A stretch of 64,000 nucleotides of DNA from a bacterium (lineage in GTDB: Bacteria; UBA8248), in contig OZ253442.1 of assembly GCA_965261085.1 (NCBI GenBank), positions 2,464,001-2,528,000 on the forward strand, read 5' to 3'. The translations under genes and the position numbers were made by a program. A model generated the notes under the pieces. The model was not told where the DNA came from, ran no database searches, and saw only the letters and a program-made list of their open reading frames with translations. Positions 2,383-52,959 of the stretch are shown here, piece after piece. The number at the start of each line of letters is the position of its first letter. Within the stretch, counting starts at the first letter, position 1.

Positions 2383-2545
2383 ATTCGCTTGGATACACGG
2401 GAGATTGAATTGCTCCGTTTCTTCCTTGATTGCATCTCATGGAAAGCGAATTCCCAACATGCTTTAGAACAATGAATCTGTCCCAACAGTATCAACAGGA
2501 TAACTGTATGTCACACGCTAAAACCCCTCTTCCCAAACCGTTAGG
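2383..2545 (+). repeat. R0, most diverged copy of the ~165-bp R element
   Basis: GGATACACGGGAGATTGAAT...TTGATTGCAT...GGAAAGCGAATTC...TATCAACAGGATAA. The GGAT-to-TCAA offset is 101 bp as in the other copies. Confidence 0.7.
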
Positions 2546-2942
2546 ACAATAGATTAACGTAATTTCATTCATGGCAAAACGAAGTGGTGGCTGATCCGAT
2601 TCCAGCCGACCCACATGTTATGCCGGAACGAGAGATACCAAGACGCTTTTAGGAGCATTGTTGGATGTTTCACAGAGGTGCTCCGCGTCCAGCGGTACTA
2701 GTTCAGGGCCTGTTTCTGTTAAAAAGTCACTGGGATATTTGGATATGCGGTCAGAGTAGCGAAAGGCCGTATTCGGTAAGATCTCAGTGTTCAGTATATT
2801 GACGCACGTTGTCCTTCTGCTATCTCGGCCGATTCTAGCTGGACGCCCAATATAGCAATTCCTCCAATGGCGAGAGTTCCTCTATTCTGGCATCAATTTG
2901 TGAAAATCAGCTTGCAACCCTATGTTAAATTAACTCAATATT

Positions 2943-5651
2943 TTATGCTGAAATCAGTTCTTCACCTTTCGCAGCTTGCAAGGACAACTGCCGTCCGCCG
3001 ACTCCTTCGAAAAGCTGCTCCCGGCATGTAAGCACAATGATCTGAACATGGCTGGCGACCATGTTCAGAATGTCGAACATCCGACCCATTCTGTGGTCGT
3101 CTGAAAACACCAGCGCGTCATCCAGAATGACGGTTGCAGGGTGTCCTTGTTCGACAAGCATCTCAGCAAAAGCGAGGCGCACTAGGACGGCGATCTGCTC
3201 CTGCGTCCCCATACTCAGGTGGTGAAAAGCCTCCTCATAGCCCTCCTGCCGCACGACGCCGACGATATGCAGGTTTTCGTCAATTGTGATTTCCGCGCCA
3301 GGAAACAGAAGCTGAAAGTATGGATGTGCCCGGCTCAGAACCGGAGAAAGATAGCGCTCTTTAGCGTCGCTCTCGGCAGAGCGAAGTGTTGATAACAGCA
3401 GAGAAAGCACTTGTACTTCTCGCTCGTACCGCTGGAGACGATCTTCGGTCAACTCGACTTCGCGAGCTTTTTGCTGAATAGCTTCGTCAAGCCCAGCACC
3501 TTCAAGCGCTTCAATATGCGACCGGAACCCGGCTATCTTTTCGTTCAACGCAGAACGCTTGTCGTGTCTATCCTTAACCGCCTTTTGCAAACGAGAAATC
3601 CGCGCTTCCAACTGCAGAAGCGTCTCGCCCTCACGTTGCGCCTCAAGATCAGAAATCACCTTCTCCCGATCCACCAACTCTATTTCAGCGGCAGAAACCG
3701 TCGCGCTCAGCTCATCTTCAGAACCTTGTTGTTCGGCGTCAATAAGGTCGCTCTTGAGTTTATCCAGGCGCACTATCCCGTCCTCGAACCTTGTCTTCAC
3801 TGCTCCCAATTTGGTCTGTATGTGTCCGAGCTCCTCTTCCGGGCCAGCAAGGGAGGCCCCGGCGGCGGCGAGCGTTTCTCTGACATCCTGCGCACTATTC
3901 TGCGCATCAAGCAGTGCTTCCTCGGCTTCTTTTTCCGTTGGCAAATCCTGAACGCTAAGCTCGCTCAGTTCGCGTTCCAGGAACGTCTTCAGCCCTTCAA
4001 TGTGATTGGCTAACGGTTCCGCACCGGCGTCATAATCTTCTGACGAGGGCGCGTGCAATTCAGCCTCTTGCCGCGCAAATTCAGCGTTTTGAAGCAGTTT
4101 TTGGCGCTTAGAGAGCTGTTCCTCGGCTGTATCAAGCGAGTTGACCCCGCACTTTTCCAGCTCAGACTTAAGTGCATCACTCGCCTCGCGTTGCTGGGTA
4201 AGAAGCTTGTCACGATCCTTGATGGCGGGCTGAACGGAAATACTGCCGTAATCAGGAATGACAATCGTAGTTGCCTCGACCGCTCGTACTGCTGTGTGAT
4301 CGGCCGAAAGCGCCACGCCATCCACTTCGATTTTCGACAACCGGTCCGATGGCATTTCAAACGAGACGAGTGTGGCGGCGGCAGAAAGACGTGAGCGTGC
4401 GCTTTCCAACGCTTTGGCCGCGCACCGTATTATTTCTATGTTCTCATCGTTAACTAAAACGGCGGCTGCACCCTGTAGCGCAACCCTTCGTTTCTTCTCA
4501 GCCTCGTGCGCTTTCTCGTAGCGTCCCTGGAGTTCGCGTATCCGGACATCACGTTGAACTGCGTTGAGAACACGGCGCGATAACGAAACTGTCTCATCCG
4601 CTTGGGTTACGGTATTCTCTGCTTCCTTTACATCTTTTCGAAGTTGCTCAAGGTTCGACCGTAGCTCCTTTTCTTGCCCGCGAACCTCGTCGAGGCTCTT
4701 CTTCGCCAGTTCAGCGGTTTCCGTGTCGGTTTCGATCTGGTCCTTCAGACTGCGACGCTCGGCAAGAGCTTGTTCCGCTTGTTCCAAGTTGCGGTTCTTT
4801 AGTTCAACGTCTGTCGCGGCCGCCTCGATGCGTGTTTCGAGCTTGGCGAGTTCTGCATGTCGCTTCCGCGCGGCGTCCAGCTCCTCCTTGTCTGAATGAT
4901 CACGCTCTCCAGATGAAAGACGGGTGAGCGTTTCCTGTGCTTCTTCTAGGTTTTTTAGTACCTCGGATAGCCCCTGGCGACGGCTCCGCAACTCTTCGAG
5001 TTCCGACTGGATCGTCTCGACTTCTTCAATTAGTTCCTTGTAGTCGCCGCGTGGTCTGTCGGTGCTTGTGACCAACTCGGAGAGCTGTTTTTCTACTACA
5101 CCCAGCAAGGCCCTTCCACGCTTGCCACCGAGAACCGCACCCACTTCCGATTCCAATGCGCTGTGCAGGTTCGAGCGTGCGCTATCGGGAAGATCAAGGG
5201 AGCCGAAGGATTGGCCTTGTTGAACCCAGAGGACATTCCACATGCCGAGAGCTTCAGGTTTGGCACCCGGCTTCCCTGGCTCATCGAACCCGAGCAGAGC
5301 ACGTAGTGCATCTTCTGATTCATCGCCTTCGAGCTTGCGTCCGTCTGGACAAAAAAGGTGGGCATAGGGCTTCTTTACGAACCGCTTTCTGATCCGATAA
5401 ACCCCTTCATCAACTTCGAACGCCAGTTCAACAACCGGCGCAGCTTGGTTGCGGTCATTCTGCAATGCCGTAATCGATTGGGCCTTCGAACTGTGCTTTT
5501 CGAAAAGAACAGCACGCAGCGCATCTAGCAGAGTGGATTTGCCCATCTCGTTGGGACCGACAACGACGTTCAAGCCGTCGCCGATGTCGTTCAGACATAT
5601 CGGCGTCGTAAATTTCTTGAACTGATTGATAGCGAGAGATCGAATCTTCAT
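2943..5651 (-). CDS. Rad50/SbcC-like (YhaN-type) coiled-coil ATPase
   Basis: Walker A GPNEMGKST, long coiled coil, signature LSMGTQEQ, Walker B ILDD. No CxxC zinc hook seen. Confidence 0.9.
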   Translation of the reverse strand: MKIRSLAINQFKKFTTPICLNDIGDGLNVVVGPNEMGKSTLLDALRAVLFEKHSSKAQSITALQNDRNQAAPVVELAFEVDEGVYRIRKRFVKKPYAHLFCPDGRKLEGDESEDALRALLGFDEPGKPGAKPEALGMWNVLWVQQGQSFGSLDLPDSARSNLHSALESEVGAVLGGKRGRALLGVVEKQLSELVTSTDRPRGDYKELIEEVETIQSELEELRSRRQGLSEVLKNLEEAQETLTRLSSGERDHSDKEELDAARKRHAELAKLETRIEAAATDVELKNRNLEQAEQALAERRSLKDQIETDTETAELAKKSLDEVRGQEKELRSNLEQLRKDVKEAENTVTQADETVSLSRRVLNAVQRDVRIRELQGRYEKAHEAEKKRRVALQGAAAVLVNDENIEIIRCAAKALESARSRLSAAATLVSFEMPSDRLSKIEVDGVALSADHTAVRAVEATTIVIPDYGSISVQPAIKDRDKLLTQQREASDALKSELEKCGVNSLDTAEEQLSKRQKLLQNAEFARQEAELHAPSSEDYDAGAEPLANHIEGLKTFLERELSELSVQDLPTEKEAEEALLDAQNSAQDVRETLAAAGASLAGPEEELGHIQTKLGAVKTRFEDGIVRLDKLKSDLIDAEQQGSEDELSATVSAAEIELVDREKVISDLEAQREGETLLQLEARISRLQKAVKDRHDKRSALNEKIAGFRSHIEALEGAGLDEAIQQKAREVELTEDRLQRYEREVQVLSLLLSTLRSAESDAKERYLSPVLSRAHPYFQLLFPGAEITIDENLHIVGVVRQEGYEEAFHHLSMGTQEQIAVLVRLAFAEMLVEQGHPATVILDDALVFSDDHRMGRMFDILNMVASHVQIIVLTCREQLFEGVGGRQLSLQAAKGEELISA

Positions 5652-7040: not shown

Positions 7041-7163
7041 GTAAACATTCAGTCGTCGGGTGAGATCGTCGCTGGCGCCAGAGGCAGTTGTTGATATTGC
7101 GAGGCGTAGTCGGTTTGGGCTGGTGCTTTCTTGACCGCCATCACCCCACAATTGAATGTTTAC
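7041..7163. mobile_element. 123-bp IS66-type MITE (MITE1a)
   Basis: Terminal inverted repeats GTAAACATTCAGTCGTCGGGTGA / GTAAACATTCAATTGTGGGGTGA. Flanking 8-bp near-duplication CCGACAAG (7033-7040) / CCGACAGG (7164-7171). GTAA ends and 8-bp TSD are IS66 hallmarks. Confidence 0.75.
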
Positions 7164-7178
7164 CCGACAGGGACGCTC

Positions 7179-7343
7179 CGGGATGCGCGGGAGTTTGAAT
7201 TTCCTCGTTTCCGTTTTGATTACATGCTGGAGGAGGGGGATTCCGAATGAGGTTCTGATAAACCATTTTTCGGCAATAGTTTCAATAAACTACAAAGATT
7301 TTACCGCTAATGGAAATACCCCAACGCCTGTAAGCGGGCGAAA
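7179..7343 (+). repeat. R1, ~165-bp R element
   Basis: GGGATGCGCGGGAGTTTGAAT...CGTTTTGATTACAT...TTTCAATAAACTA...TAAGCGGGCGAAA. Confidence 0.9.
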
Positions 7344-7432
7344 GACATTTATGTGCGGTCCGTAAGGAGGAACACTTCCTGCCGCTCGCGCCACCTTGTC
7401 GCCGACGGGATGCGGACACGAACTAGGGAGCA

Positions 7433-9546: not shown

Positions 9547-9552
9547 CTCCCT

Positions 9553-19303: not shown

Positions 19304-19467
19304 TCTGGCCACAGGCGAGGGGAGGAGACATGAGATGTCGAAGCCCCCAAGCCGCAGGAACACGGCGCTACGCGAGGCGATGGCGAAAGGCGAAACAGGA
19401 CGGAGGCGCGGTTGCGTAGTGCGGGTGGAAGGGGAGCCGGGATGGTTCCGGCGACTCGGACCCGCCA

Positions 19468-19630
19468 GGATGCGCGGGCGTTTGAATTCGCCCGCTTTCG
19501 TTTTGATTGCATGCTGGAGAAGGTGAATTCCTAACGGGATCGAGGAGAATGAGTATTTCTAAATGATGTCAATAAGATAAAGAGATTTCACGGCAGATGA
19601 GAACACCTCTATTCATCAAAGCGGGCGACA
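19468..19630 (+). repeat. R2, ~165-bp R element
   Basis: GGATGCGCGGGCGTTTGAAT...CGCTTTCGTTTTGATTGCAT...TGTCAATAAGATAA...AAAGCGGGCGACA. Confidence 0.9.
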
Positions 19631-19698
19631 GACGGTATCGTCGGGCTCGTTATCCTGCCGGTCCACTTCAGGTACTGGAACGTTGTCCACCCTCGAGG

Positions 19699-20603: not shown

Positions 20604-20718
20604 AAACTTATGCAGAGTTTTTTTCGTCTGCTATTTGTTCTTTCCATACTAGCCACTTGCCAGAGGACGTTTCTTCATTTTCTTGATGCCCGAGAGGGCC
20701 CACGAGGGAGACATTGCG

Positions 20719-35298: not shown

Positions 35299-35320
35299 GG
35301 AGTGTTTTCCCTTACCGCTG

Positions 35321-37567: not shown

Positions 37568-37577
37568 GGTCGTCTCC

Positions 37578-39370: not shown

Positions 39371-39380
39371 ATCAATTTCC

Positions 39381-41050: not shown

Positions 41051-41601
41051 GGCAGCACCTTTTTTTGACTTGCGAGCGGTCCTTTCAGTCCCAGCCACGG
41101 GACGTCGGGCAGCGGGAGGGCACGGCCCCGGATGCGTTCCAGCGGGATGAGCCCGATCTCCTCATAACGGCTGTCGTGGCTGTCCGCGTGATCGGCGTGG
41201 ACGTAGTAATGATCCTGCGGGATCACTACAGGTTTGATCGCTTCAAGCTCGCGTCCGTTGAGCGCACGCCTCTTCGCGGTCCCGATGAGGGCGCCGTTCA
41301 GGCGGATGCGGCGCTCCGCGTCCACCTCCACCCACTCTCCCGGCAGGCCGCGCACGCGCTTCATGTAGGGGATAGGCGATCCCGCAGCCTCCGGCGGGTC
41401 GAAGAGCACGAAGTCGCCGCGTTTCGGCGCGCCCATGAGCGGCAGCGCGAAATACCCCCACGCTCCGTCTGAGGTACTCGCGTTGACGTGGACGCGCGAG
41501 GCCGCAGCGAGCCACAGTCCGGAGAGGACGGCCATACAGACCAGGAACCTGAAGCCACGGGGGTTCGCGCGTCCCGGCGCCTTGGCGTTTATCATCATCA
41601 T
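41047..41601 (-). CDS. S26-family conjugal transfer (pilin-processing) peptidase
   Basis: VNASTS, MKRVRGLPGE, SHDSRYEEIGLIP. Confidence 0.85.
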   Translation of the reverse strand: MMMINAKAPGRANPRGFRFLVCMAVLSGLWLAAASRVHVNASTSDGAWGYFALPLMGAPKRGDFVLFDPPEAAGSPIPYMKRVRGLPGEWVEVDAERRIRLNGALIGTAKRRALNGRELEAIKPVVIPQDHYYVHADHADSHDSRYEEIGLIPLERIRGRALPLPDVPWLGLKGPLASQKKVLP

Positions 41602-41981
41602 TTTTTCTCTTCCTCCTTTTTCTTCGGGGGATGCCTCAAGTGCGGGACCGCGGCCATCGCCGCCTCGACCTCTGAGGTTAAATCCTCGGCGCCCGCTGCG
41701 ACGGCGCCCGCCGTGAGCAGCACCGCGCCGTGGCGCTCCGCCGTACGGGCGAGCGCCTCTTCCAGCCGCCCCGCCCAGTCGCGGGCGGCTTCTGCCGCCG
41801 CTTTGCGGTCTCCGCCCTCGCGGATGGTTTTCGTGACGTAGTCCGCCGTGAGGCTCGAAAGCCGAACGCTCGCGATACGCGGTATCCGCTCCAAGTTGAC
41901 CCGCAAGGTGACGGCCGAGACGGCCGCGGCCACGCCGGCCGCGAGGAGCAGGGAGGCTGCGAACGCCGGGAACCCGCTCAT
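41598..41981 (-). CDS. trbI: TrbI-like protein
   Basis: N-terminal TM, VLLTAGAVAAGAEDLT, position between traC and traW. Confidence 0.75.
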   Translation of the reverse strand: MSGFPAFAASLLLAAGVAAAVSAVTLRVNLERIPRIASVRLSSLTADYVTKTIREGGDRKAAAEAARDWAGRLEEALARTAERHGAVLLTAGAVAAGAEDLTSEVEAAMAAVPHLRHPPKKKEEEKK

Positions 41982-42244
41982 GACCGCTCTCCCGCCGCGC
42001 GACGCCGCGCACTCATCGATATCCATGCCCTGGCGTCGTACCGCCTGAACCAGGCCGTTCCCTCCTCGTCATGGAACATGTAGAGGTAGCGGCCCGCGTA
42101 GAGCGGATCGCAGGGATCGGCCGAGAGCACGCGCGCTGCGATAGCGGCGCGGAACACGCCCTCGGTGTCCTCGAAGACCTGGACGCTCCGCTTCCGTTCA
42201 GGCCGCCGCCCGCGTCCAGGCCGTCGCCTGCGATCAGGCCGCAT
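41978..42244 (-). CDS. small hypothetical protein
   Basis: FRAAIAARVLSADP...YAGRYLYM, overlapping both neighbours. Confidence 0.5.
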   Translation of the reverse strand: MRPDRRRRPGRGRRPERKRSVQVFEDTEGVFRAAIAARVLSADPCDPLYAGRYLYMFHDEEGTAWFRRYDARAWISMSARRRAAGERS

Positions 42245-42992
42245 CGCGTGAGCCTCCGGCCAGGGGCGAGCGTTCCGACGACGCCTCCGGCGCCGTCCGT
42301 ACGTGCGCTCCATCTTGTTTCTCCTCGTTACTTTCGCCGGCCTCATCAGTGTGAGGCGCCGTGGCGCTCCCGCCCGCGTCCGGCGGTCTTTTGAGGTCGT
42401 GGAAGCGATCGAGCCAGAGCCGTGCCGCACGGGCGGGATCCAGGGGCCTGATGCGGCGATCGAGCGGCGGGAAGGCGACGGACGTGGCCGCGCTCTCGCT
42501 TGCGCCGGGGACGTCTCGCGCCTCGGCCGCCTCGGCCATCCGGGCGATGAATCGTAAAAGCTCCGCCTCCTCCGCCGTGGGCTCCGCACGGAGCCCGGCC
42601 GCCTCGAGCACGGCCGCCTGTACCCGCCCGCAGAGCCGTCTCATGCGGTCCGTCGGCCGCAGCGAGTGAGCGGCGTCGGCTCCCAGCCACGCGACACTCG
42701 CTTGAGAGAGCAGCGCGTAGAGCGCCGCCTCCCGGACACGCCCGCCCGCGGGTCCGCCCAGGTCTTCTATCGCCTCGCTCATCGTCACCGCGTGGGCCGC
42801 GAGGGAGTGGAAGCGCTTGAGCCGCCCGCCCCGGCGGCAGGTATTGGCCAGCACGTGGGCCAGGGCCTCGAAGTCGACCGCTTCGGCCGTCAGCGATTCG
42901 GGGTCCCCCGGCCACTCCAGAAGCCGCTCCCCGTTCAGGGTCTCCTCCGCTCTCCTCGCGGCGCGCGTGTGCGCCCGTCTTTTCTCGTTCAT
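42234..42992 (-). CDS. HD-fold (YfbR-like) protein with a degenerate HD motif
   Basis: DFEALAHVLANTCRRGG...FHSLAAHAV...ALYALLSQASVAWLG, where the family has LLHDA.EAY.GD. Confidence 0.7.
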   Translation of the reverse strand: MNEKRRAHTRAARRAEETLNGERLLEWPGDPESLTAEAVDFEALAHVLANTCRRGGRLKRFHSLAAHAVTMSEAIEDLGGPAGGRVREAALYALLSQASVAWLGADAAHSLRPTDRMRRLCGRVQAAVLEAAGLRAEPTAEEAELLRFIARMAEAAEARDVPGASESAATSVAFPPLDRRIRPLDPARAARLWLDRFHDLKRPPDAGGSATAPHTDEAGESNEEKQDGAHVRTAPEASSERSPLAGGSRDAA

Positions 42993-43057
42993 GTGCGTCT
43001 CTCCTTTCTTGCTCGTGGTTCGTCTTCAAATGTCGCCCGGTATCGAGAGATGAAAGG

Positions 43058-45559
43058 TCACGGCGCGCCTACTTCCGCGATGCGCGCAACCGCTTCTTCC
43101 GTGCTGAGGCCCTCTTCCTTCAATTTTTCGATAGCGGCGAAGGCGGGCCCGCGCGATGAGTAGAGCGCGGACGATGCGCGGTCGAGCACGAGCCGCGCCA
43201 CCCTCCAGCCGTCCGGGCCGTGCAGCACCAACTCGGCGTGGCGCCCGTCCACGGTGGCGAGGCTTTTAAGAGCCCGCTCCATCCCGGGGTCGCAGTGGAT
43301 GCGCTTTTCCTGCTTGAGGAGTTCCACGGACTCGTCCTTCTGGGCGAGGAAGATCGTCCAGTCGGCGTTGTCCCAGGCCGCCCGCGCCGCGGGGTTCGCG
43401 TAATAGTCGTTCACGCTCTGGGTGCCGGTGACGAGCGCGCCCCGGTACTTGCGCGCCCGGCGCGCCGCACCCTCTAAGAACGCCCGGCTGTCCTCGCCCG
43501 ATAGCAGGTCCCAGGCCTCATCGATAACGATCGCCTTGGGCCGCGTCCTCGGGCCGTGGTACATGCGTTGGGTGGCGAGAAATACCACGAGCATGAGCAC
43601 CACGCCCTGCAGGTCGCCCCGGCCCTTGAGTTCGGCCAATTCGAACACGGTGAGCGCGGCATCCAAAGCCGGGGTCTCGCCGCCTTCGAAGAGCCTCCCG
43701 AGCGCGCCGCCCGGGCGCCAGGGTCCGAGAGCGAGCGCCATGTCGGATGCACGCCTGTCGCCCGCCGCCTCGAGGCCTCGCTGCACGGCGCCCAGGTCCG
43801 CGTCGTTTCCCGCCTCCTCCCAGGCGCGCGCGATGGCCTCATCGATGAGCGCCGCCTCGATGTCGTCGATCCGCCCGCGCCTGCGGCACATGCGCCCGAT
43901 CACGGCCGCCAGCATGGCGAAGCATTCCTCCCGGTAGTCACCGTCGCGCGCGGCCGTCTCCGCATCGATCATGGCGAAGGGGTTCAACCGCGCAGGGTCC
44001 TTGCCGAAGGCGATGAAGGCGCCGCCCAGGGCCTCGGCCGTGTGCTGGAACGAACGCCCATCATCAATGACGACGGCCTCACCGCCCGCGCCCGCGATCC
44101 CGGCGACGAGTTCCTGCATGAGAACCGACTTGCCCGAGCCTGATTTTCCGGTCACGGCCACGTTGTAGTTCCCCGCCTCGTTCGCGAAGGGGGACCAGCA
44201 GGCGGGCTGGCCCCGCCTCCCCACGAGCAGGAGCGCCGGCGGCGTGTCGCTCGCCGCCCTTTGGCCGCGCCACTCGCCGTGCACGGGGGCGAGGTTCACG
44301 GCGGATGAGGTGAGCAGGGTCTTCATCCGGCCCATCCGGGCGAGGTCCGCGTCGAGTCCCCCTGCCGGGACCATGGGCAGGCAGGAGAGCCAGCCCGGCA
44401 GGTGGGCGTAGCGCTCCGTTCCCAGGCGCCAGCCCTGTCCGTGGTAGATGGCGCGCACGGCCTGTTCGGCCTCGTCGATCGCGTCGAGCGGCGCGTAGAC
44501 ACAGATGGTGTAACTCGCCCGCACCAGGCGCTCGCCTTCCTTGAGCCGTTCGGTCACGAAGCGCCAGTCCCGGGCCTTCTCCGGGAGGCCTGGCAGGTAG
44601 CGGGCTATCCCCGTGCCCGCCTGCTGCGTCGCCCGGGCGGATTTCAGGAAGGCGCGCTCACCGTCGGCCGCCTCGCCCATCATCACGGTGAGTGCGGTCA
44701 GTACCGGGGCGCCCGGCTGGAGGAAATCGCGGTGGAAATCCCCGATCAGCGCGTTGCCGCGCCAGCCTGGCCAGACCTCAGGATATGCGCGCGCGGAGAG
44801 TACGCGCACCGCCACGTCCGTCCCCGCGGGATGGTGGAAGACCAGCCCCGCCGGCGCCACGCTCATCGCACGGCCGGGCGCCGCGCACTGCAGGTGGATC
44901 GGGTCGCGCGGCGACCAGCGCCTCTCGGGCCGCTTAAGCCCGCCGTCGTGTTCTCCCTCCGGGTCGGGCGCAACGAGTTCCGCCGCGAGTGATAACAGCG
45001 CGTCCGGCTCGAGCCTTCGCGCCCAGGTCCCGATCGAGGCGAGCGCGCCCTCTATCGCACGGCGGAAGCTCCCGAGCGCGGTCTCTGACGCCGGTCCCGG
45101 CCGTCCCGGCAGGCAGGCCGTCATGAACACCCGGCAATCGTTCAGGGTGAACGGCGGCCCGCCCTCATGGAGCGGGCGCCAGCCGGCGCCCGAGAAGAGG
45201 GCTTCCCTCCGCGCCGCCATCACGGCTTGTAAGCCGCCCGCTCCCTCCCTAGGTTGCGCCCAGTCCCTGATCGCCGCCCCGTAGCGCGGGCTCGTCCAGT
45301 GGATGACCTGCACCACCGAGCGCTCGGGCGCCGAGTCGGCCAGAGTCCCGGCCAGCGCGTCCAGCGTCCCCTCGTCGATTCCCGCGAAGGGCGGGAGTTC
45401 CAGTACGAAGCCGCAACTCGCGGCGTTGACGTAGAACTCGCCCGCCTCGTCCCAGGCCCGCCAGGGGAGAAGATCCACGAGCGGGGCGGGCATGGCCGGG
45501 AGCGTCCAGGGCTGGAGCGCGTCAGGTCCTTTGAGCAAATCCTTCAAACGTTCGATCAC
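43058..45559 (-). CDS. traC: TraC (VirB4-family ATPase)
   Basis: NYNVAVTGKSGSGKS, IDDGRSF, IDEAWDLL, RRARKYRG. GTG start overlaps the traV stop. Confidence 0.95.
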   Translation of the reverse strand: MIERLKDLLKGPDALQPWTLPAMPAPLVDLLPWRAWDEAGEFYVNAASCGFVLELPPFAGIDEGTLDALAGTLADSAPERSVVQVIHWTSPRYGAAIRDWAQPREGAGGLQAVMAARREALFSGAGWRPLHEGGPPFTLNDCRVFMTACLPGRPGPASETALGSFRRAIEGALASIGTWARRLEPDALLSLAAELVAPDPEGEHDGGLKRPERRWSPRDPIHLQCAAPGRAMSVAPAGLVFHHPAGTDVAVRVLSARAYPEVWPGWRGNALIGDFHRDFLQPGAPVLTALTVMMGEAADGERAFLKSARATQQAGTGIARYLPGLPEKARDWRFVTERLKEGERLVRASYTICVYAPLDAIDEAEQAVRAIYHGQGWRLGTERYAHLPGWLSCLPMVPAGGLDADLARMGRMKTLLTSSAVNLAPVHGEWRGQRAASDTPPALLLVGRRGQPACWSPFANEAGNYNVAVTGKSGSGKSVLMQELVAGIAGAGGEAVVIDDGRSFQHTAEALGGAFIAFGKDPARLNPFAMIDAETAARDGDYREECFAMLAAVIGRMCRRRGRIDDIEAALIDEAIARAWEEAGNDADLGAVQRGLEAAGDRRASDMALALGPWRPGGALGRLFEGGETPALDAALTVFELAELKGRGDLQGVVLMLVVFLATQRMYHGPRTRPKAIVIDEAWDLLSGEDSRAFLEGAARRARKYRGALVTGTQSVNDYYANPAARAAWDNADWTIFLAQKDESVELLKQEKRIHCDPGMERALKSLATVDGRHAELVLHGPDGWRVARLVLDRASSALYSSRGPAFAAIEKLKEEGLSTEEAVARIAEVGAP

Positions 45560-46077
45560 GGGAGCCTCCAGCGCGTGGGCTCGACCACGACCCGCACCCA
45601 GCCCCCCTCGCGGTAGACCCCTTCCGCGTCCACGAAGGGCGCGATCCATATCCTGGCGATGCGTTCTTTTGTGCGGAAATTTTCATCGGCCGGAGCGGGG
45701 GTGTCTTGCACCGGTGGCAGGGATAATGGTTCGGCGGTAGCCGCGTCCTCGTCGTGTTCCTCGTCTGGACTAAAGAGTTCCGCGAACCAAACGAGGGGAT
45801 TGCAGCCCCACGCGCATGGGCCGCCCGCTCCCGTAGTCCCGGGAGGGTTCGTGCGGCGAAACGGGGCGGGGAGGCTGTTTTTCCGGGCCCCTCCGGAAGG
45901 CGTCACCGCAGGGTCCGCCTCGGATACGCTTTGGCAGGCCACGCCCTGCGCCAGGGGGCACTGCCAGGCCTCGCCCACGTGGCTCCCCCCCGCGCAGCCG
46001 GCGAGGAGCGCCGCTCCCAGGAGCATCGTGAGCGGCCGCCAGGGTTTTCCGGTTCGTTGATGGATCGTAGTACTCAT
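45556..46077 (-). CDS. traV: TraV lipoprotein
   Basis: LAGC lipobox, WQCPLAQGVACQSV, RIWIAPFVDAEG. Confidence 0.9.
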   Translation of the reverse strand: MSTTIHQRTGKPWRPLTMLLGAALLAGCAGGSHVGEAWQCPLAQGVACQSVSEADPAVTPSGGARKNSLPAPFRRTNPPGTTGAGGPCAWGCNPLVWFAELFSPDEEHDEDAATAEPLSLPPVQDTPAPADENFRTKERIARIWIAPFVDAEGVYREGGWVRVVVEPTRWRLP

Positions 46078-47318
46078 CGGTTTCTCCTCTGCTTGTCGCC
46101 TGTTTTTTTCTTCTTCTCCTCACGCCCGTCGATCCGGGCGCCCTCGATGAACACGACCGTCACCCGCGTACCCGTCTGCAACTGGATTACGGGCTGGTAC
46201 TGCTCGGCCCGGCGGATCAGGTAATCGGCGACCCTGCGCCCGGCCGATGCAGCGCCGGCGCCCAGACCCGCACGGCCCAGATCGCGGAGGCCCGCCGCGT
46301 TCGCGGCGCCCTCCGTCCCGGTTGGGGTTTGAAGCAGGTTGGCCGCGGTCTCCCCCGCGCCGGATACCAGACCCGCCAAGAAGGCCTTTTCCACCAGCGC
46401 GCCCTCGCGGCTCACCACCGGACCCCGCACGCCGGCCTTCCCGCCGCCCGCGACGAAACCCGTGACTTTCGTCTCGATCACGCTCCCGGTTTCCGGCCCG
46501 GCGCAGGTCATGGTCTGCAGCCGCACGTAGATTTTTTCCGAAGAAAGGTCCCCGTAGGCGGCGCCCGTCAGCGTGCAGCCCGCGACGTCGGTCTCGAGCG
46601 CCTCTCCGTCCACCGCCGCGCTCCGCGCCTTGCCGGTCAGGCGCAGCAACACCGGCCTCGGGTCGCCCTGAGAGGAGACGCCCACAGAGGCGTCCACGCC
46701 CGCCAGCACCACCGCCTCCGCGTAGGCGCCCGCCGGCAACCAGGACCCGATCGGCCGGGGACCCGGAGCAGGGTCTTCGTCCGCAGGATTCGGGACTTTC
46801 TCGAATTCCTGGATCATGGGCGCCGTCGGTGCAGACGCCTTCCCGCCGGGAGTTGTGCGTTTCCCCTTCACACCCGAAACGCCGGGCGCGCCAGGGGTCC
46901 GGCTCCCCGGAACCGGCGCGGCCGGGCGGGTTTCGAGCCGACGGCGCATCTCCTCGATCACCGCCGCCTGCCGGTCGATCACCAACCGTCCGTCCTCGGC
47001 GTCGCGCGTCAGGCGCTGCTTGAGCCGAGCGTTCTCCTCCCCGGAGCGCCGGCTCCTGGTTTCCATCTCGCGGAGGCGCGTTTCCAACCCGCCTATCCGC
47101 GCCTCGGAGCGCCGCACCCAGACCGCCTCGGCCGATTTGGAACCGGCCAGTTCCGCCCTGATCCCGCTCCGCGGCGGCGGCGCGCCGCCGTCTCCCCCCG
47201 AGAACCAGACCGCGAACGCGATCAATAACGCCGCGGCGATACCTGAAAACAGCAGCAACTGTCGCCCCCGGATCCGCCTGCTCTCCGGGTCCATCGGGGT
47301 TTTATCCTGTCTACTCAT
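46074..47318 (-). CDS. traB: TraB (VirB10-like)
   Basis: LPAGAYAEAVVLAGVDA, GDLSSEKIYVRL, RAEQYQPVI. Confidence 0.93.
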   Translation of the reverse strand: MSRQDKTPMDPESRRIRGRQLLLFSGIAAALLIAFAVWFSGGDGGAPPPRSGIRAELAGSKSAEAVWVRRSEARIGGLETRLREMETRSRRSGEENARLKQRLTRDAEDGRLVIDRQAAVIEEMRRRLETRPAAPVPGSRTPGAPGVSGVKGKRTTPGGKASAPTAPMIQEFEKVPNPADEDPAPGPRPIGSWLPAGAYAEAVVLAGVDASVGVSSQGDPRPVLLRLTGKARSAAVDGEALETDVAGCTLTGAAYGDLSSEKIYVRLQTMTCAGPETGSVIETKVTGFVAGGGKAGVRGPVVSREGALVEKAFLAGLVSGAGETAANLLQTPTGTEGAANAAGLRDLGRAGLGAGAASAGRRVADYLIRRAEQYQPVIQLQTGTRVTVVFIEGARIDGREEKKKKTGDKQRRNR

Positions 47319-48085
47319 CGCGCCGCCCCAATCCGGGAGGCTTCGCGCACCGTAACCGAGAGCCGTCCGCCCGAGGGACCGCTCGCAGGCGGAGCGAGCC
47401 AGAGCGCGGCGACGCCCGACGCGAGACTTTGCATGAGTGTTTCGAAGTCGTCCCCCGACCCCAAGTCCGCTTCGAACACGCGCGCGATAAAGCGCGGCCC
47501 GCGCCAGACCTCGAGCAGCGCCAGGCCGTCCGCCCCGGGCGTTCCCGCCTGTGTCTCGATCACGTAGCCCCGGGGAACCTCGCGCCGCGCCACCGCGCGG
47601 ACGAGCGCCACCAGCGCGCCCACTCGGGCGTAGCCCGGCCTTGGGCTATCTTCCCGAGGCGCAGCGGCCGCGTTCCTGATCAGGATCTGCGCCGAGTCGC
47701 GCGCGGCTACCCGCAACGTCAGCCGGTAGGTGAAGCCTTTCACCGTCCCGATGAACAGCGTCACGGGCTTGCGGGCGAGGTTCTCGTGGTCCAAAGGCCG
47801 CAGGTAGATGTCCCCGCGCGCCTTGTCGTGCTCCACCGCGAAACCATCCGGTCCCCTGATCACGAGCGCGACCCGATCGTCCGCCAGCGCGATACGGCTC
47901 ACCGCCCGGTCCGATATCACGGCTCCCAGTTCCGCGTGGTCTGCGGCGTCCAGTATCTGCATCGCCGCCGCCGGCGCAGCCGTCCATAGAAACAGCGCCG
48001 CCAGGAGAAGCGCCGGGAGCAACGGGCGGGATAAGGCGGTCGGCGCCCGGTCCTTCGTGGTCCCTGTTCTCGTCGATCTGTTCAT
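47315..48085 (-). CDS. traK: TraK
   Basis: Signal peptide, ISDRAVSRIAL, GDIYL, LFIGTVKGFTYRL, position in the operon. Confidence 0.85.
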   Translation of the reverse strand: MNRSTRTGTTKDRAPTALSRPLLPALLLAALFLWTAAPAAAMQILDAADHAELGAVISDRAVSRIALADDRVALVIRGPDGFAVEHDKARGDIYLRPLDHENLARKPVTLFIGTVKGFTYRLTLRVAARDSAQILIRNAAAAPREDSPRPGYARVGALVALVRAVARREVPRGYVIETQAGTPGADGLALLEVWRGPRFIARVFEADLGSGDDFETLMQSLASGVAALWLAPPASGPSGGRLSVTVREASRIGAAR

Positions 48086-48639
48086 TTTCTCTCCCCCAGT
48101 TCTTCGAAACGGAGCAGGCCTATCCGGCCCGCGTCCACGCGGAAGGACAGCCGGTAGCGTTTCCTCGCGCGAGATACCGGCTCGCGTCCCACCCAGGTCG
48201 CGAGTTCCCCGCTCACCACGACGGTGAGCGTTCCGGGGTCCGCCTCGATACGACCGGGGTAGAAGGCCGTCGAGAGGTCGCGGCGCGCCATGCGACCGGC
48301 CTCGGCCGCGACCCAGGCCCCGATAGCGCCACGGGCGGAGGCGTGGGCGAACCGCGCCGCCGCCTCGCGGGCGTGTTCCGCGTTCTCGGGAGTCAGCGTC
48401 AGCAGCGTCACGGCGATAGTCCGTCCCATGTCTTCCAGATACCTGCTCCCGGCCCGGCCGCCGCCGACCTCCCACGCCGGTCCCGCGACCGCCGGGACCA
48501 GCACCGTCATGCGCTCCACCGAGGCGAGACCGATGCTCAGCCCCAGGTTGGCCAGGAGTGAGAGGGCGAGCAGCGCGGCCAGCGCCGCGCGCCCGTCCCG
48601 CACCTGTCGCCCCTGCGCTTCCATCATGTCGCGTCTCAT
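48082..48639 (-). CDS. traE: TraE
   Basis: TM, TVLVP, YLEDM...LTLTPEN, GELATWVG. Confidence 0.88.
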   Translation of the reverse strand: MRRDMMEAQGRQVRDGRAALAALLALSLLANLGLSIGLASVERMTVLVPAVAGPAWEVGGGRAGSRYLEDMGRTIAVTLLTLTPENAEHAREAAARFAHASARGAIGAWVAAEAGRMARRDLSTAFYPGRIEADPGTLTVVVSGELATWVGREPVSRARKRYRLSFRVDAGRIGLLRFEELGERK

Positions 48640-48649
48640 TAAAGCCTCC

Positions 48650-48943
48650 TTATCCGGTGAAGCGGCGCAGGTGGCTCGGCGGTGCGCCCCTGAGACCCAG
48701 CGCGAAGCCGGGCAGGAACCAGTAGAGCGCGCAGATCGCGACATCCGCACCGCCTCCCCGCTTGGCCCGGCGCAGCAGGGCCCAGCCCGCAAGACCGCTC
48801 AGGAGACCGGTCACGAAGGCGTTGGCCGCCAGCCCCAGGAGCGCCGGCCCCAGAAGGGCCGCCGCCTCGTCCAGGGTCCAGAACAGCCAGCGTTCGGGAT
48901 CGTCCAGGCGTGAGGGGATCGCGTGCCTCACCTGATCGTTCAT
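48650..48943 (-). CDS. traL: TraL
   Basis: IPSRLDDPERWLFWTLDE...YWFLP...PPSHLR. Confidence 0.9.
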   Translation of the reverse strand: MNDQVRHAIPSRLDDPERWLFWTLDEAAALLGPALLGLAANAFVTGLLSGLAGWALLRRAKRGGGADVAICALYWFLPGFALGLRGAPPSHLRRFTG

Positions 48944-48955
48944 CCGCTCTCCCCC

Positions 48956-49252
48956 TCATACGATCGCCGTGCCGACCAGCCCGGTGACGATGCCCGTCCC
49001 GGCGCCTGCCGCGATGCCCACCCCGACCGCGCCCGCCAACTGCGCGGCGTTGAAGCGAAGTACCGAACCCACCAGGGCGGCCCCCACGGCGAGCGCGGCC
49101 GCAAGCTGTCCGCCCGTGCCCGCGACGATCCCGGTCACCGTGTCGAGCGGAGCCGAGAACGTCGTGTCCGTCGTGGCCCAGGCCGCCTCCAGTCGCCACA
49201 GCGCCCAGACGAGCGCGGCGAGGACGTGTCTGTTCCAGAAAAATTTTCTCAT
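48956..49252 (-). CDS. traA: conjugative pilin TraA
   Basis: Leader ending AWA, two hydrophobic Gly/Ala-rich helices, immediately upstream of traL. Confidence 0.75.
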   Translation of the reverse strand: MRKFFWNRHVLAALVWALWRLEAAWATTDTTFSAPLDTVTGIVAGTGGQLAAALAVGAALVGSVLRFNAAQLAGAVGVGIAAGAGTGIVTGLVGTAIV

Positions 49253-50010
49253 CGCGTATTCCTCCCCAGGGCCAGGGCCCCTCCGTCGTCCGACGTCGAG
49301 ACCCGCCGGCGCGCCGAGGCCCACGCCTCGATATCCGCGAGCAGGTAGCGCACCCGGGAGCCGAACCGGTGGAATACCGGCCCCTCGCCGCTCACGCGGT
49401 AGCGGTCCAGCGTCCTCGGCGAGAGGCCGAGCCACGCGGCCGCCTCCCGTGTGTTCAGGTAGTTCCTGCCGTTCTCGTTCATGCGCATCTCTCCTTCTCG
49501 TTCTGGTTCGGCCCCGGACCCGGCATGCGGGAGCGGGGCGGTGAATGGGCCGGGTGTCCTCCCGGCGAAAGGGTCCGTTATGTCCGTCAGCCTGTCCCGG
49601 ATGGCCCGGAGCTCATCTTCCCTCGCGTGCGCAGCCATCCAGGCGCGCATCCGGTCGACCGTCCTGAGCAGTGGCGGGTACCCCCTGCGCAGCCTTCCCA
49701 CGAAGGAGGGATTACAGACGGCTTCTTCGCCCAGCACCGAGGGCTTGGTCCCGGACACGGCCAGGAACGCCTCGACCTCGCGCCGGAAGACCGGACCCAG
49801 CGGCGGATACCCCATGAAGGCCAGCACCCGGTCCGCCGTCACCAGGCGCACCGAACGCCCCCGTAACTGCGAGGCCACGAAATCCGGATCGCCCAGCGCG
49901 TCTATCCCGAAGCGACTCACGCACACCCCGTGGCGCGCGCGCCAGGCCGCAACGATCCGCCTCAAACGATCGTCCAAAGTCATGTCGGTATGGGTATCGA
50001 ACGTCTTCAT
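49249..50010 (-). CDS. tandem Cro-like HTH domains fused to an AlpA/HTH_17 excisionase-like domain
   Basis: Two repeats (SRFGIDALGDPDFV.. / SVLGEEAVCNPSFV..) then YLNTREAAAWLGLSPRTLDRYRVSGEGPVF...VRY. Confidence 0.8.
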   Translation of the reverse strand: MKTFDTHTDMTLDDRLRRIVAAWRARHGVCVSRFGIDALGDPDFVASQLRGRSVRLVTADRVLAFMGYPPLGPVFRREVEAFLAVSGTKPSVLGEEAVCNPSFVGRLRRGYPPLLRTVDRMRAWMAAHAREDELRAIRDRLTDITDPFAGRTPGPFTAPLPHAGSGAEPEREGEMRMNENGRNYLNTREAAAWLGLSPRTLDRYRVSGEGPVFHRFGSRVRYLLADIEAWASARRRVSTSDDGGALALGRNTR

Positions 50011-50039
50011 GCAGGCGAACATAAGGGAATCATTTTTGT

Positions 50040-50067
50040 TTGACAATAGTTTTACGTAGTGTATAAC
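50040..50067 (+). promoter_or_regulatory. sigma70-like promoter for the cI-like gene
   Basis: TTGACA-16 bp-TATAAC in the AT-rich divergent intergenic region. Confidence 0.55.
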
Positions 50068-50154
50068 CTTAGTTTACATTAAGTTTGCGCCCACATTTGC
50101 GCCCGGCTGCGCAGGGATGCGGCAAAAAAAACGGGGATTTTCCCGCGACGGTGG

Positions 50155-50920
50155 AATGAAAGGGGGCAGAATGAACGAGTACGGAAAAAAGGACGAGAGG
50201 GAGGCGCTCCGGCGCGACCCGGTCCGTCTCAGGCTGAAGGAACTCCTGCGGAGCAACGACCTCACCCTCTCCGCGGTATCGCTGGCCATCGGCCGCAACC
50301 AGACCTATCTGCAGCAGTACGTTGACCGCGGCGTGCCCGTGGTGCTCGGATACCGCGATAGCGAAACCCTGGCCGAACTCCTCGGATGCGACCCTGAGGA
50401 ACTCCGCCACGAGACCGTGCCGAAACGAAAACCCATGACGCGCAAGCGGCCCGGGCCGCTGCCCGGGCTTCCCGGCGCGCCGGTGGTGGCCGTCCCGGAG
50501 ATCACGTCGGAGGCCGCCGTCGCCGAGGCGCTCACCGGCGAGCGCGCCCCGGAACTCGAGCGCTGGGGCTGGCCGTTGAACATCATCCGCTACGAGTCGG
50601 GCGCCGCGCTCGGGAACCTGCGCATCATCAGGGTGCGGGGCAACTCGATGGAGCCCGAGATGCGCGAGGGTGACCGCATCCTGGTCGACGCCTCGAACAA
50701 GCTGCCGGTCACGGGCGAGAAGTACTTGCTCTGGGACGGCAACGGGCTGGTCGTCAAGCGGGTCGAGGTGGTCCACCGTGATGCGGCGGACGGGGACGAA
50801 CCGCCCCGGCTCAGGCTGATCTCCGCCAACCCCGACTACGCCCCCTATTCATGCCTCGCCCGGGACGTCCACGTCTTCGGCAAGGTGTGGTGGGTGGTGG
50901 GGCGGGTGGCGCATGGATGA
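50155..50920 (+). CDS. CI/LexA-like repressor (HTH plus S24 autopeptidase)
   Basis: LSAVSLAIGRNQTYLQQYVDRGVP HTH, intact dyad GNSMEP / VVKRVE, LISANPDY. Confidence 0.9.
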
Positions 50921-51038
50921 CGCAGGGAATGTCGGCAGGTCGGAGGACGGGTAAGGGAAAACGGTCAATGAGACGGGATTGGGAAAACCAGTGTACCGAA
51001 CCGTTCGAACAACATGCTTGCATTCAAGGGGTCGTCCA

Positions 51039-51159
51039 CATACATTCTGTCGTCGGGTGAGATCGTCGCCGGCGCCAGAGGCAGTTGTTGATATTGCGCG
51101 GCGTAGTCGGTTTGGACCCATGCTTTCCTGACCCCCATCACCCCACGGTTGAATGGTTC
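51039..51159. mobile_element. MITE1b, decayed copy of the 123-bp MITE, interrupted at its right end
   Basis: Aligns with 7041-7163 (GTCGTCGGGTGAGATCGTCGC...GGCGCCAGAGGCAGTTGTTGATATTGCG). The alignment resumes after 52778. Confidence 0.8.
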
Positions 51160-51404
51160 GTAACCATTCGGTGGCAGGGTGATGATAGAGGCGAGGCCAG
51201 CAGCGAGCCGTTGTTCTGCCCGAATGTGGTCGCCCCGACTAAGTGCTTCTGTAATACGATGGCACTAGGAAAATCGGGCGGCTGCGGTACATGACCAATA
51301 TTTTCAACTTGGTCGACATGTCCTTGAACCCGCCGTCCAGTTCGAATCAGCCGATGCTGTGGTTTGCTCTATCACCCCGCGACCGAATGTGTATGGACGC
51401 GCCC

Positions 51405-51660
51405 CAAAATGCAAGCTTTTTCTTCGGACAGTTCGGCGCAATGTGGTCAGGCGCAGTCGTGTATTCGGCCTCTAGATTGCGGCGTTTCCCTCTTGCCACG
51501 GGCCCGTATGGAGATGCGCGGATCGGGTCCGAATCGCTTACGCGAGCTTGAAAGCTCTCCATTCAGGTCCTGGTTTTCCCGATCCCGTCTCATTGACCGT
51601 ATGCCCCTTACCTGTCCTCCGACCTGCTCACATTCCCGGCATTATCCGCTCGCCTGCCGC
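51405..51660 (-). ncRNA. predicted IS1111 seekRNA/bridge RNA region
   Basis: Long non-coding region downstream of the transposase, containing matches to the target and to the circle junction. Confidence 0.7.
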
Positions 51661-52686
51661 TCAGGCGGCCGGCACCGGCTCCTTGTAGACCTCTTTTTTC
51701 GTCATCAGCGCCCAGGCGATGCGCGCCATCCTGTTGGCCAGCGCCACCGCGACCAGCATACGCGGCTTTCGCGCCAGCATCCGGGCCAGCCATGAGCCCG
51801 GCGGAGCGCCGCGCCGGACCGCCCAGCGCACCACCGTCATCGCGCCTATGATCAACAACCGCCTGACGTCGCGCTGGCCCATCTTCGATATCCTGCCCAG
51901 CCGGGGCTTGCCACCGGTGGAGTGCTGCCGCGGGACGAGCCCGAGCCAGGCGGAGAAGTCGCGACCGCGCCGGAAGCTTTCCATCGGCGGCGCGAAGGCC
52001 TGGATCGCCATCGCCCCGATCGCCCCGATCCCCGGTATGCTCATCAGGCGCCTCGCCTCCTCGTCTTGGCGCGCACTCGCGAGAAGTTGCCTCTCCAACT
52101 CCCCGATCTTCGCATTGAGGCCGGCGATCTGATCGAGCAGAACCCCGCCCAGATCGCGGACCGCCTCGGGCAGGCCCAAGCCCGGATCTGCAACGGCCGA
52201 CGCCAGCCGCGCGACATGGGCGGGACCCTGGGGAGCAACGACGCCGAACTCCGCCAGATGGCCGCGCAGCGCGTTGATCGTCTGGGTGCGCTGTCGCACC
52301 AGCAAATCGCGCGTGCGGAACAGCATCCCTCGGGCCTGCTGCTCTTCAGTCTTCACGGCCACGAAGTGCATGGTCGGGCGAGAGGCCGACTCGCAGATCG
52401 CCTCCGCATCAGCCTCGTCGTTCTTGTGGCGCTTGACGAAGGGTTTCACGTAGATCGGCGGGATAAGCTTCACCTCATGGCCGAGCTTGCCGATCTCACG
52501 CCCCCAGTAGTGCGCGCTCGCACATGCCTCCATCGCCACCAGGCACCGCGGCTGCGAAGCCAGAAAGCCCAACACCTTCGCCCTGGTAAGCTTCTTCCGG
52601 AACGCGACCGATCCGTCCGGGCGCGTGCCGTGGAGTTGAAAGCTCTGTTTTGCCAGATCGATGCCGATGATGTGAACCTGTTCCAT
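51661..52686 (-). CDS. IS110/IS1111 DEDD recombinase
   Basis: IGIDLAK, MEACASAHYW, KNDEADAEAI, WLGLVPRQHSTGGK, AVALANR. AGGAGG RBS. Confidence 0.96.
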   Translation of the reverse strand: MEQVHIIGIDLAKQSFQLHGTRPDGSVAFRKKLTRAKVLGFLASQPRCLVAMEACASAHYWGREIGKLGHEVKLIPPIYVKPFVKRHKNDEADAEAICESASRPTMHFVAVKTEEQQARGMLFRTRDLLVRQRTQTINALRGHLAEFGVVAPQGPAHVARLASAVADPGLGLPEAVRDLGGVLLDQIAGLNAKIGELERQLLASARQDEEARRLMSIPGIGAIGAMAIQAFAPPMESFRRGRDFSAWLGLVPRQHSTGGKPRLGRISKMGQRDVRRLLIIGAMTVVRWAVRRGAPPGSWLARMLARKPRMLVAVALANRMARIAWALMTKKEVYKEPVPAA

Positions 52687-52795
52687 GGATTCCCCTCCTG
52701 CAGGGCGGTAACGACACCACCTCACCACAGTGTGATGCCTTCGGGAGGGCGCGTCCATCCCATCGCTTACAATGGTTCGACGACGTGGACGCGAC

Positions 52796-52959
52796 GGGAT
52801 GCGCAGAAGTTTCAATGAATCCGCTTTTGTTTTGATTACGAATTGCAGAAGGCAGATTCTGAACAAGTTCGGAAAATTTATATATCCAAAATAATTTCAA
52901 TAAGATATAGGGGTTTCATAGCCGATCAAAACCTCTTAATTTCTCTAAGACGGGCAAAA
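52796..52959 (+). repeat. R5, ~165-bp R element at the island/host junction
   Basis: GGGATGCGCAGAAGTTTCAATGAATCCGCTTTTGTTTTGATTAC...TTTCAATAAGATAT...CGGGCAAAA. Confidence 0.88.

Follow-up and report, generated by a model that had tools for sequence, protein, structure and literature searches.

A dispersed, block-wise conserved non-coding DNA module marks junctions of mobile DNA in a bacterium of the UBA8248 lineage

Two kinds of described sequence come closest to the repeat treated here: interspersed repeats that serve as targets of insertion sequences (IS), represented by repetitive extragenic palindromes and bacterial interspersed mosaic elements (REP/BIME), and sites that bound mobile modules and have IS homing to them, represented by pdif. 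REP/BIME (PMC1525189) are a dispersed, intergenic, non-coding family to which specific IS home and which forms mosaics with other short modules. The pdif sites of Acinetobacter plasmids are short and split mobile DNA into dif modules, and IS1202-family elements insert 5 bp from their XerC arm, according to PMC10132070. The repeat in question, R, is about 180 bp long and occurs six times (R0 to R5) in the stretch analysed here, a window of 64,000 nucleotides from a bacterium of the GTDB lineage UBA8248 (assembly GCA_965261085.1, contig OZ253442.1, positions 2,464,001 to 2,528,000). Judged from its sequence, R is a constrained and dispersed non-coding DNA module, and it stands at about an even chance of being a protein-bound site at which mobile DNA is joined.

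A comparison of R with these systems shows both shared and distinct features. Like REP/BIME, R is dispersed, intergenic and non-coding, is targeted by specific insertion sequences and forms mosaics with other short modules. Unlike them it measures about 180 bp and is not palindromic overall, it has tens of copies at most (as sampled in 8-kb pieces) that are about 65% identical and conserved in blocks, and it is targeted at a single edge by an IS with IS66-type ends. With pdif it shares the division of mobile DNA into modules and an IS family that lands at a fixed distance, and it contains a 28-bp dyad that may be comparable in geometry; it differs in carrying some 150 bp more of conserved sequence and in the common orientation of its six window copies. 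The att sites and the tandem arrays formed by integrative and conjugative elements (ICEs; reviewed in PMC5812530) resemble R in that direct repeats flank a conjugative element and modules stand in tandem. In contrast to them, the 180-bp repeats around the conjugative element of the window are only about 66–69% identical, that element has no intact integrase, and the repeat occurs at many unrelated loci. The first-pass annotation of this DNA could not match R to attC; no dyad runs from one end of R to the other, and the scanned proteins include no integron integrase (the box motifs were not scanned). Repeats of the Correia and ERIC type are small and dispersed and carry promoter-like and IHF-like motifs. 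R resembles them in all of this and differs in having no terminal inverted repeats and in not forming a hairpin as a whole.

The six copies are real. A nucleotide hidden Markov model (HMM) built from the six copies claimed by the first-pass annotation and run over the window returns exactly six matches, all on the + strand as claimed, with E values of 3e-40 to 1.3e-52, while its best match outside R has E = 1.2. The 16-mer at the start of R as originally drawn has nine matches at up to three mismatches, against 1.21 expected, and none of 100 shuffles reaches nine; six of the nine are the R copies, and those at 22430, 37802 and 39206 have no HMM support. The description of the copies as diverged but nearly gapless also holds, with a core pairwise identity of 52.5–72.3% and 0–14 gap columns per pair, as do the spacings given for them: 101 bp from GGAT to TCAA in R0, R1, R2 and R4 and 100 bp in R5, and 95 bp from GCGGG to TCAR in both R1 and R3. 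The copies have 39–49% G+C in a window of 63%. The chance that all six would be co-oriented is 2 x (1/2)^6 = 0.03, a figure of plain arithmetic without a control run. The window copies end in a short hairpin-like motif.

R extends well beyond the window. A search pattern fitted to all six window copies was run in one scan of species-representative genomes, with each locus seen as 8 kb (loci are cited below as L with a number). It finds R at 27 loci in 11 metagenome-assembled genomes (MAGs). Seven of the loci share a single 3.9-Mb chromosome and five belong to a second assembly; of the 11 assemblies, two are labelled Nitrospinota or Nitrospinaceae. Within these loci nhmmer identifies 28 near-full and three partial copies, on either contig strand. 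The neighbours include LysR regulators, short-chain dehydrogenases, cytochromes c, ATP sulfurylase, an MMPL transporter and the glycine-cleavage T protein, among others. The first-pass annotation had asked whether R clusters with the tra/cI family of the window. R does not cluster with that family alone: it is dispersed over 11 assemblies, on either strand and also by ordinary metabolic genes, a distribution that the annotation itself had named as counting against its reading. R is thus not peculiar to this tra/cI element. Nor is co-orientation a general rule, since neighbouring copies lie head to head in L002 and L008. The association of R with mobile-element genes does carry over, as these are found beside it in the window and at at least 14 of the 27 other loci once similarity to the IS110, cI, HTH_17 and relaxase genes of the window is added. 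Searches with blastn in its distant mode, using R4 and an R of L010 as queries, gave no match in plasmids, and R4 gave none in phages. R forms a genuine family without a counterpart in Rfam or in the searched collections of plasmids and phages, the literature not having been searched for R itself. In one subfamily (L003, L006, L009, L010, L013, L014, L027 and others) an A+T-rich extension of about 80 bp follows on the right of R. It holds three or four ATTTATCGA-like repeats at distances of 11 and 22 bp and has an iteron-like look; the window copies lack this extension.

Constraint on R was measured on 26 copies with pairwise identities below 85% (mean 65%), over 117 alignment columns outside the search pattern and against a null in which the mismatches of each copy are placed at random. 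Seven of the 117 columns are invariant against 0.05 expected, the maximum in 5000 trials being two, and 18 show one mismatch or none, where 0.5 would be expected. The first-pass annotation had read R as a phased protein-binding site, and the conservation in blocks with fixed spacing is of the kind expected at such sites. These counts bear on the simplest alternative, that R is a decaying, functionless repeat whose junction positions in the window are due to chance. Such a repeat would be dispersed on either strand beside unrelated genes, as R is; an extremely unlikely and disfavoured reading nonetheless, given the seven invariant columns, the near absence of insertions and deletions at 52–72% identity and the recurrent insertions at one edge described below.

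Most of the conservation of R is held by two elements, a 28-bp imperfect dyad at its heart and a promoter-like block with a -35-like hexamer 17 nt away (Table 1). Only the dyad is palindromic; R as a whole is not. Its arms are complementary at a mean of 7.1 of 11 positions over the 34 copies of the family, at 3–8 positions in the window copies and at 10 of 11 in the best copy, that of L003. The centre and right arm of the dyad are invariant, yet both lie inside the search pattern. The family form of the promoter-like block is TG-n-TAyyAT with an RTRAAA hexamer 17 nt upstream, on the minus strand. The columns for the TG and for hexamer positions A2, A5 and T6, the positions that matter in an extended -10 promoter, are kept in 32–34 of 34 copies, and the string TGnTAnnnT is present in 24 of 34, including R0, R3 and R4. 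A motif of R, TATCAAN4(A/T)TA, had furthermore been likened to the IHF consensus. Its WATCAA part is kept in nearly all copies; the TTR part is matched in only 6 of 34, those whose column 161 of the alignment is T.

Several observations show that R behaves as a DNA site and not as a structured RNA, as the first-pass annotation had supposed. Rfam gives no match to the window on either strand, at the gathering score or at E<=1. The folds of five copies, on both strands, are not more stable than those of shuffles (z of -1.01 to +1.56). RNAalifold on 34 copies finds a single stem of only six pairs; when this is extended to 11 pairs, no covariation signal emerges, as 88.0% of cells are paired where shuffles give 87.9%, and 205 of 500 shuffles reach its covariation score. 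A de novo helix search on both strands yields only short helices within conserved low-complexity blocks, and a local hairpin before TTTCGTTTTG is strong in few copies only. The absence of an open reading frame (ORF) is likewise borne out: stop-free copies in the six frames number 0, 3, 0, 7, 2 and 0 among the 34 family members, so that no frame is kept open and a conserved small ORF is rejected. A role as leader or terminator of a neighbouring gene was considered and dropped, as R has no orientation bias. Finally, the two ends of R are mutually unrelated, in agreement with the earlier statement that it lacks terminal inverted repeats, and no target duplication flanks it; by both marks R is not a miniature inverted-repeat transposable element (MITE).

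The promoter-like block raises the possibility that R is a small transcription unit, with a minus-strand promoter that makes an RNA of about 110 nt or longer or that reads out leftward; transcription would be predicted to start about 7 nt downstream of the TAyyAT block. The conserved columns in the right half of R do coincide with the extended -10 motif and its upstream hexamer, and the next gene to the left lies on the strand of this promoter at R1, R2, R3, R5, L010, L013, L027 and L026. A unit of this kind is very unlikely in view of the Rfam, folding and covariation results, the lack of a terminator on that strand and of any orientation bias, and the copies in which the motif is missing; the consensus used in the scan, moreover, may not be that of this phylum.

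The left edge of R is an insertion hotspot for elements with IS66-type ends. Directly left of most copies stands a motif of 24–26 nt that on the other strand starts GTAAACG or GTAAGCG; IS66 elements, according to PMC11946415, have 20–30-bp inverted repeats starting GTAAGCG and make 8-bp direct repeats. An IS66-type end faces R in 17 of 34 copies at up to 9 mismatches in 24, lying 0–2 nt away in eight copies and 11–14 nt away in nine, and random windows reach this score in 0.7% of cases. A complete 3374-bp element is found at L017 (473-3846) and L026 (2749-6122), with a 771-aa IS66 transposase that carries a long N-terminal extension and a 290-aa DruA-like protein (PF14236); opposite ends of it abut R in the two loci. 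Miniature elements with IS66-type ends adjoin R as well: one of 234 bp at L010 (4101-4334), and one in L008 that exactly spans the gap between two head-to-head copies. No target duplication was found around either of these two.

The clearest insertion is at R1, where a 123-bp miniature element is flanked by CCGACAAG (7033-7040) and by CCGACAGG (7164-7171), the first 8 bp of R1, a direct repeat with 7 of 8 positions identical. This repeat of the end of R1 shows that the miniature element inserted into R1, and not that R1 arrived beside the element. The 123-bp element, unlike R, has both the terminal inverted repeats and the target-site duplication of a MITE.

A second layer of insertion is seen at R5. 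In L004 a cI gene (97% identical to that of the window over 136 aa), the miniature element found at 51038-51160 in the window and an R 96.8% identical to R5 are joined without interruption. Relative to L004 the window contains an insert of 1.6 kb, bracketed by the 9-bp duplication AATGGTTCG at 51152-51160 and 52772-52780. Within it lies an IS110-family element bounded by ATCGCTTAC at 51533-51541 and 52762-52770, and the presence of ATCGCTTAC on both sides places IS110 at the outer tip of an IS66-type inverted end. The 5' part of IS110 adjoins R at R5, L019 and L022, and an end remnant is found in L002, which makes 3–4 of 34 copies; a remnant of the 3' end lies at 2110-2335, 40 bp left of R0 and in the opposite orientation. 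This arrangement suggests RNA-guided homing of IS110 to the ends of another IS family. In the resulting nesting, elements with IS66-type ends would be drawn to R, and IS110 in turn to their ends. On the minus strand, the segment 51161-51660 downstream of the IS110 transposase gene has a fold z of -2.37, equalled by 1 of 100 shuffles; only its first 119 nt lie within IS110.

The IS110 group encodes its RNA upstream of the transposase gene, on the coding strand. R occupies a similar place at R5, L019 and L022, about 95 bp upstream of that gene and on its coding strand, and resembles in this the non-coding end and bridge RNA of IS110 elements (PMC11208160, PMC12288879). As the own end or bridge RNA of IS110, R was nonetheless rejected: it lies outside the element, which covers 51542-52770 and excludes R5 (from 52781), it is present without the IS in L004, it shows no fold or covariation, and the IS is found at so few copies.

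The same junctions raise the question of whether R itself moves, as a small non-autonomous module mobilised in trans that accumulates in mobile DNA and by IS66-type ends. Its sharp ends on both sides, the copies 93–97% identical in three contexts and its position directly after the terminal ...TTAC of IS66-type ends, in a single fixed orientation, would all fit. Elements of the IS608 type insert 3' of TTAC. An IS608-like form of this explanation was rejected, as neither conserved hairpins at the ends nor a Y1 transposase came to light, and it is kept only as part of the broader idea of a mobile R. A precedent is the ssr9 module of the IS110-family element ISPpu9, which forms its own circles and also stands alone in the genome, according to PMC12288879. 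Movement of R is distinctly unlikely, however, because R has neither terminal inverted repeats nor a target duplication and an empty site is seen neither at the 27 loci nor in the window. The copies of a single genome are old, at about 65% identity, and yet keep specific blocks, which argues for a function at each site. Furthermore, the repeat around the 123-bp element shows that the element came to R, and IS110 is placed on the IS66-type end and not on R.

Breakpoints of similarity between genomes had been expected to coincide with R, and they do coincide with its edges. Similarity between the window and L004, L016, L018, L019 and L002 stops about 5 bp or less from the right end of R. Over its whole length R5 shares 96.8% identity with the R of L004 and 93.1% with that of L018, and the flanks differ on one or both sides. 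This whole-length identity despite differing flanks indicates exchanges at the edges of R and not within the dyad. R1 with its right flank is 79% identical to R4 with its right flank (7178-7832 against 21856-22535), a flank common to L011, and R2 with its left flank is 78% identical to L001 6615-6390. The related conjugative element of L001 has an R at a point where that of the window has none. The modules between copies differ in composition, and the step in G+C across R, 0.057 on average, is somewhat larger than the 0.041 at other positions of the same sequences (resampling p of about 0.017); this test is weak, as the null positions are non-independent and include positions within genes. R4 and R5 form direct repeats around the conjugative element, as att sites would. 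R thus marks junctions, which does not in itself prove a new cassette system.

Direct repeats around an ICE raise the alternative that R is a site-specific recombination site, of the att or multimer-resolution type, for a Xer-like tyrosine recombinase acting with an HTH_17 protein, with exchange in the dyad and head-to-tail stacking by recombination of R with R. The dyad can be read as an 11-6-11 arrangement, two 11-bp arms around a centre of 6–8 bp as in Xer/dif-like sites, with an invariant centre, one conserved and one variable arm; half of the dyad, however, is fixed by the search pattern, and the invariance of its centre and right arm is not independent evidence. In L013 a truncated R (model positions 6–68, ending just past the dyad, as a crossover there would leave it) and a complete copy form direct repeats on either side of 5.2 kb that contain a Xer-like integrase gene and one for an HTH_17 protein. 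The breaks of the two remaining partial copies fall at other points, near model positions 100–107. The order integrase, HTH_17, R recurs in L010, L013 and L027, and the HTH_17 protein of the L013 type is 63% identical to the one inside R5. The best named matches of the integrase are Xer-type recombinases, well under the cut-offs. There is also precedent for an IS landing at a fixed distance from module-bounding pdif sites (PMC10132070). Against exchange in the dyad stand the copies of R5, L004 and L018, 93–97% identical on both sides of the dyad with different flanks, and the distribution of the recombinase. None travels consistently with R; the Xer-like tyrosine integrase is near R in only 3 of 27 loci, the window retains only a C-terminal remnant, and no intact integrase was found in the window or its conjugative element. 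A recombination site of this kind is rather unlikely. A decidedly unlikely extension is that R, as a 28-bp Xer-like core with some 150 bp of accessory sequence, is the recombination site of an undescribed module-stacking system of Nitrospinota-like bacteria. A small tyrosine recombinase would use it together with an HTH_17 protein as directionality factor, anything from single genes to a 31-kb conjugative element would be strung in one direction, and IS66-type and IS110 elements would have evolved homing to R. C-terminal fragments of one tyrosine integrase family recur at 26783-26962 in the window, in L001 (3495-3668), in L010 (3758-3885) and twice in L013 (796-933, 7396-7521); those in the window and in L001 adjoin the relaxase gene.

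The first-pass annotation had read R as a recombination or transfer site through which modules accrete in tandem. A non-coding DNA site, conserved in blocks and placed at mobile-element junctions, survives from this reading; specificity for tra/cI, a consistent recombinase, a full IHF consensus and universal co-orientation do not. Tandem accretion of modules through R is plausible, and the case made for it was circumstantial.

In the model considered here at about even chance, R would act as double-stranded DNA bound by proteins, in a Nitrospinota-like uncultivated clade and its mobile elements. Elements with IS66-type ends would insert into the first 8 bp of R or just before them, and IS110 would then insert onto the IS66-type ends. 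Larger modules, the F-type conjugative element included, would end at R, and the six co-oriented copies of the window would be terminal modules of elements stacked one after another, every element having brought along or retained an R. The binding of proteins to R, and stacking by recombination or insertion that R guides, are inferred. Several points weigh against this model. The invariance in columns 77–114 is partly forced by the pattern used to find the loci, and 10 of 34 copies, R1, R2 and R5 included, fail the TGnTAnnnT test. The full IS66 and DruA copies in L017 and L026 have no target duplication around them, and just one clean duplication of the end of R itself was found. Many copies stand amid metabolic genes, without a mobile-element gene within 2.6 kb, and Pfam alone finds such a gene in just 9 of 27 loci. 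R shows no orientation bias relative to its neighbours, with 19 left genes in the same and 14 in the opposite direction and 15 and 17 right genes, respectively, by crude gene calls. Finally, no R-binding protein was identified, nor was a product of recombination through R seen.

Should R be a protein-bound landing pad, it would reveal the organisation of mobile DNA in a poorly known uncultivated lineage, where a fixed non-coding module would mark the ends of elements, one IS family would home to it and a second, RNA-guided IS family would home to the ends of the first. Such nested targeting, if true, would offer testable target sequences for the IS66-type transposase and the IS110 recombinase, and R would be a marker by which the boundaries of islands could be located in such genomes. 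As no more than an interspersed repeat, R would matter locally, for annotation.

Table 1. Coordinates of the R copies, their conserved elements and neighbouring features in the window
Feature	Coordinates	Strand	Basis or remark
R0, most diverged copy	2374..2552	+	HMM match 2376-2550; nhmmer E 3e-40 and 1.7e-26
R1	7164..7347	+	HMM match 7165-7347; nhmmer E 8.8e-50
R2	19450..19634	+	HMM match 19452-19634; nhmmer E 2.2e-52
R3	20421..20605	+	HMM match 20425-20605; nhmmer E 4.3e-51
R4, left flank of F-type conjugative element	21841..22033	+	HMM match 21843-22033; nhmmer E 1.3e-52
R5, right flank of conjugative element, followed by host-like genes	52781..52962	+	nhmmer E 6.8e-45
28-bp imperfect dyad	R4 21874..21901; R0 2406-2433, R1 7196-7223, R2 19483-19510, R3 20455-20482, R5 52812-52839		alignment columns
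Promoter-like block (GTGAAA, 17 nt, TATTAT, TG before)	R4 21954..21982; R0 2486-2514, R1 7276-7304, R2 19563-19591, R3 20535-20563, R5 52891-52919	-	consensus scan flags R4
123-bp miniature element, inserted into left end of R1	7041..7163		inverted ends 7041-7064(-), 7140-7163(+)
Second copy of 123-bp miniature element, left of R5, left end decayed	51038..51160		90% identical to 7045-7161; right inverted end 51137-51160
Further IS66-type miniature element(s), stacked at one point	51161..51541		inverted ends 51160-51183(-), 51371-51394(+); terminus of right-end form finishing at 51541
IS110-family insertion sequence, 1229 bp; transposase gene 51661-52686	51542..52770	-	NCBIfam NF033542 321.7 bits (cut-off 140); Pfam DEDD_Tnp_IS110, Transposase_20
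C-terminal remnant of tyrosine integrase	26783..26962	+	tblastn 45-46% identity to residues 216-358 of L010, L013 and L027 integrases; 26 kb from R5
Conjugation genes: TrwC relaxase, coupling protein, F-type TraG/H/N/U/W/C/B/K, HTH_17 protein	27064..50046	-	Pfam
cI-like S24 repressor gene just inside R5	50117..50920	+	Pfam; 97% identical over 136 aa to gene adjoining R of L004
Related S24 genes	7433-7993, 22110-22586, 22736-23230	-	Pfam

The gene labels of the first-pass annotation are broadly right, with two corrections. The element beside R5 is the IS110-family insertion sequence described above. The 403-aa ORF at 20608-21819(-), considered as a recombinase beside R4, is an antisense artefact of a solute-binding protein gene at 20683-21744(+). 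This gene, on the + strand, makes up the module between R3 and R4. The module between R0 and R1 contains an SbcD-like phosphoesterase and a 902-aa SMC/Rad50-like ATPase, whose matches to LmuB are weak. Together with a PcfJ-like protein these genes occupy 901-6790, a segment with a G+C content below that of the rest of the island and with the weak LmuB (Lamassu) matches, and this segment may be a defence or repair module. The module between R1 and R2 has an S24 repressor-like gene, a type I secretion set and a 1861-aa cadherin/PPC adhesin, in whose gene (15763-18566) about 2.6 copies of a 1065-bp unit occur at 98% identity, along with sub-repeats of 281 bp at 93–95%. Between R2 and R3 lies the remnant of an HTH_17 gene, about 340 bp left of R3. 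The largest module, between R4 and R5, holds two S24-like genes, cargo, the TrwC relaxase, the coupling protein, the F-type transfer set, an HTH_17 protein and the cI-like S24 repressor.

Right of R5 follow a GNAT gene, 2-oxoacid dehydrogenase genes and then rimP-nusA-ylxR-infB. The NusA of the window is 73–75% identical to MAG proteins named Nitrospinaceae or Nitrospinota. The rimP-nusA-ylxR-infB region (58000-64000) has 42–48% G+C, with a third-position value of about 0.4, against 66–72% in the island (8000-50000), a difference that may reflect very foreign DNA in a host of lower G+C or a join in the assembly. A second short repeat, Z, of about 235 bp, has copies 82–90% identical at 19070-19303 and 24212-24446 in the window, in L001 (6801-7044) and in L017 (4018-4326 and 7717-7944). 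It lies 150 bp left of R2 and likewise left of the R in L001, and in L017 it flanks a 1102-aa gene on both sides.

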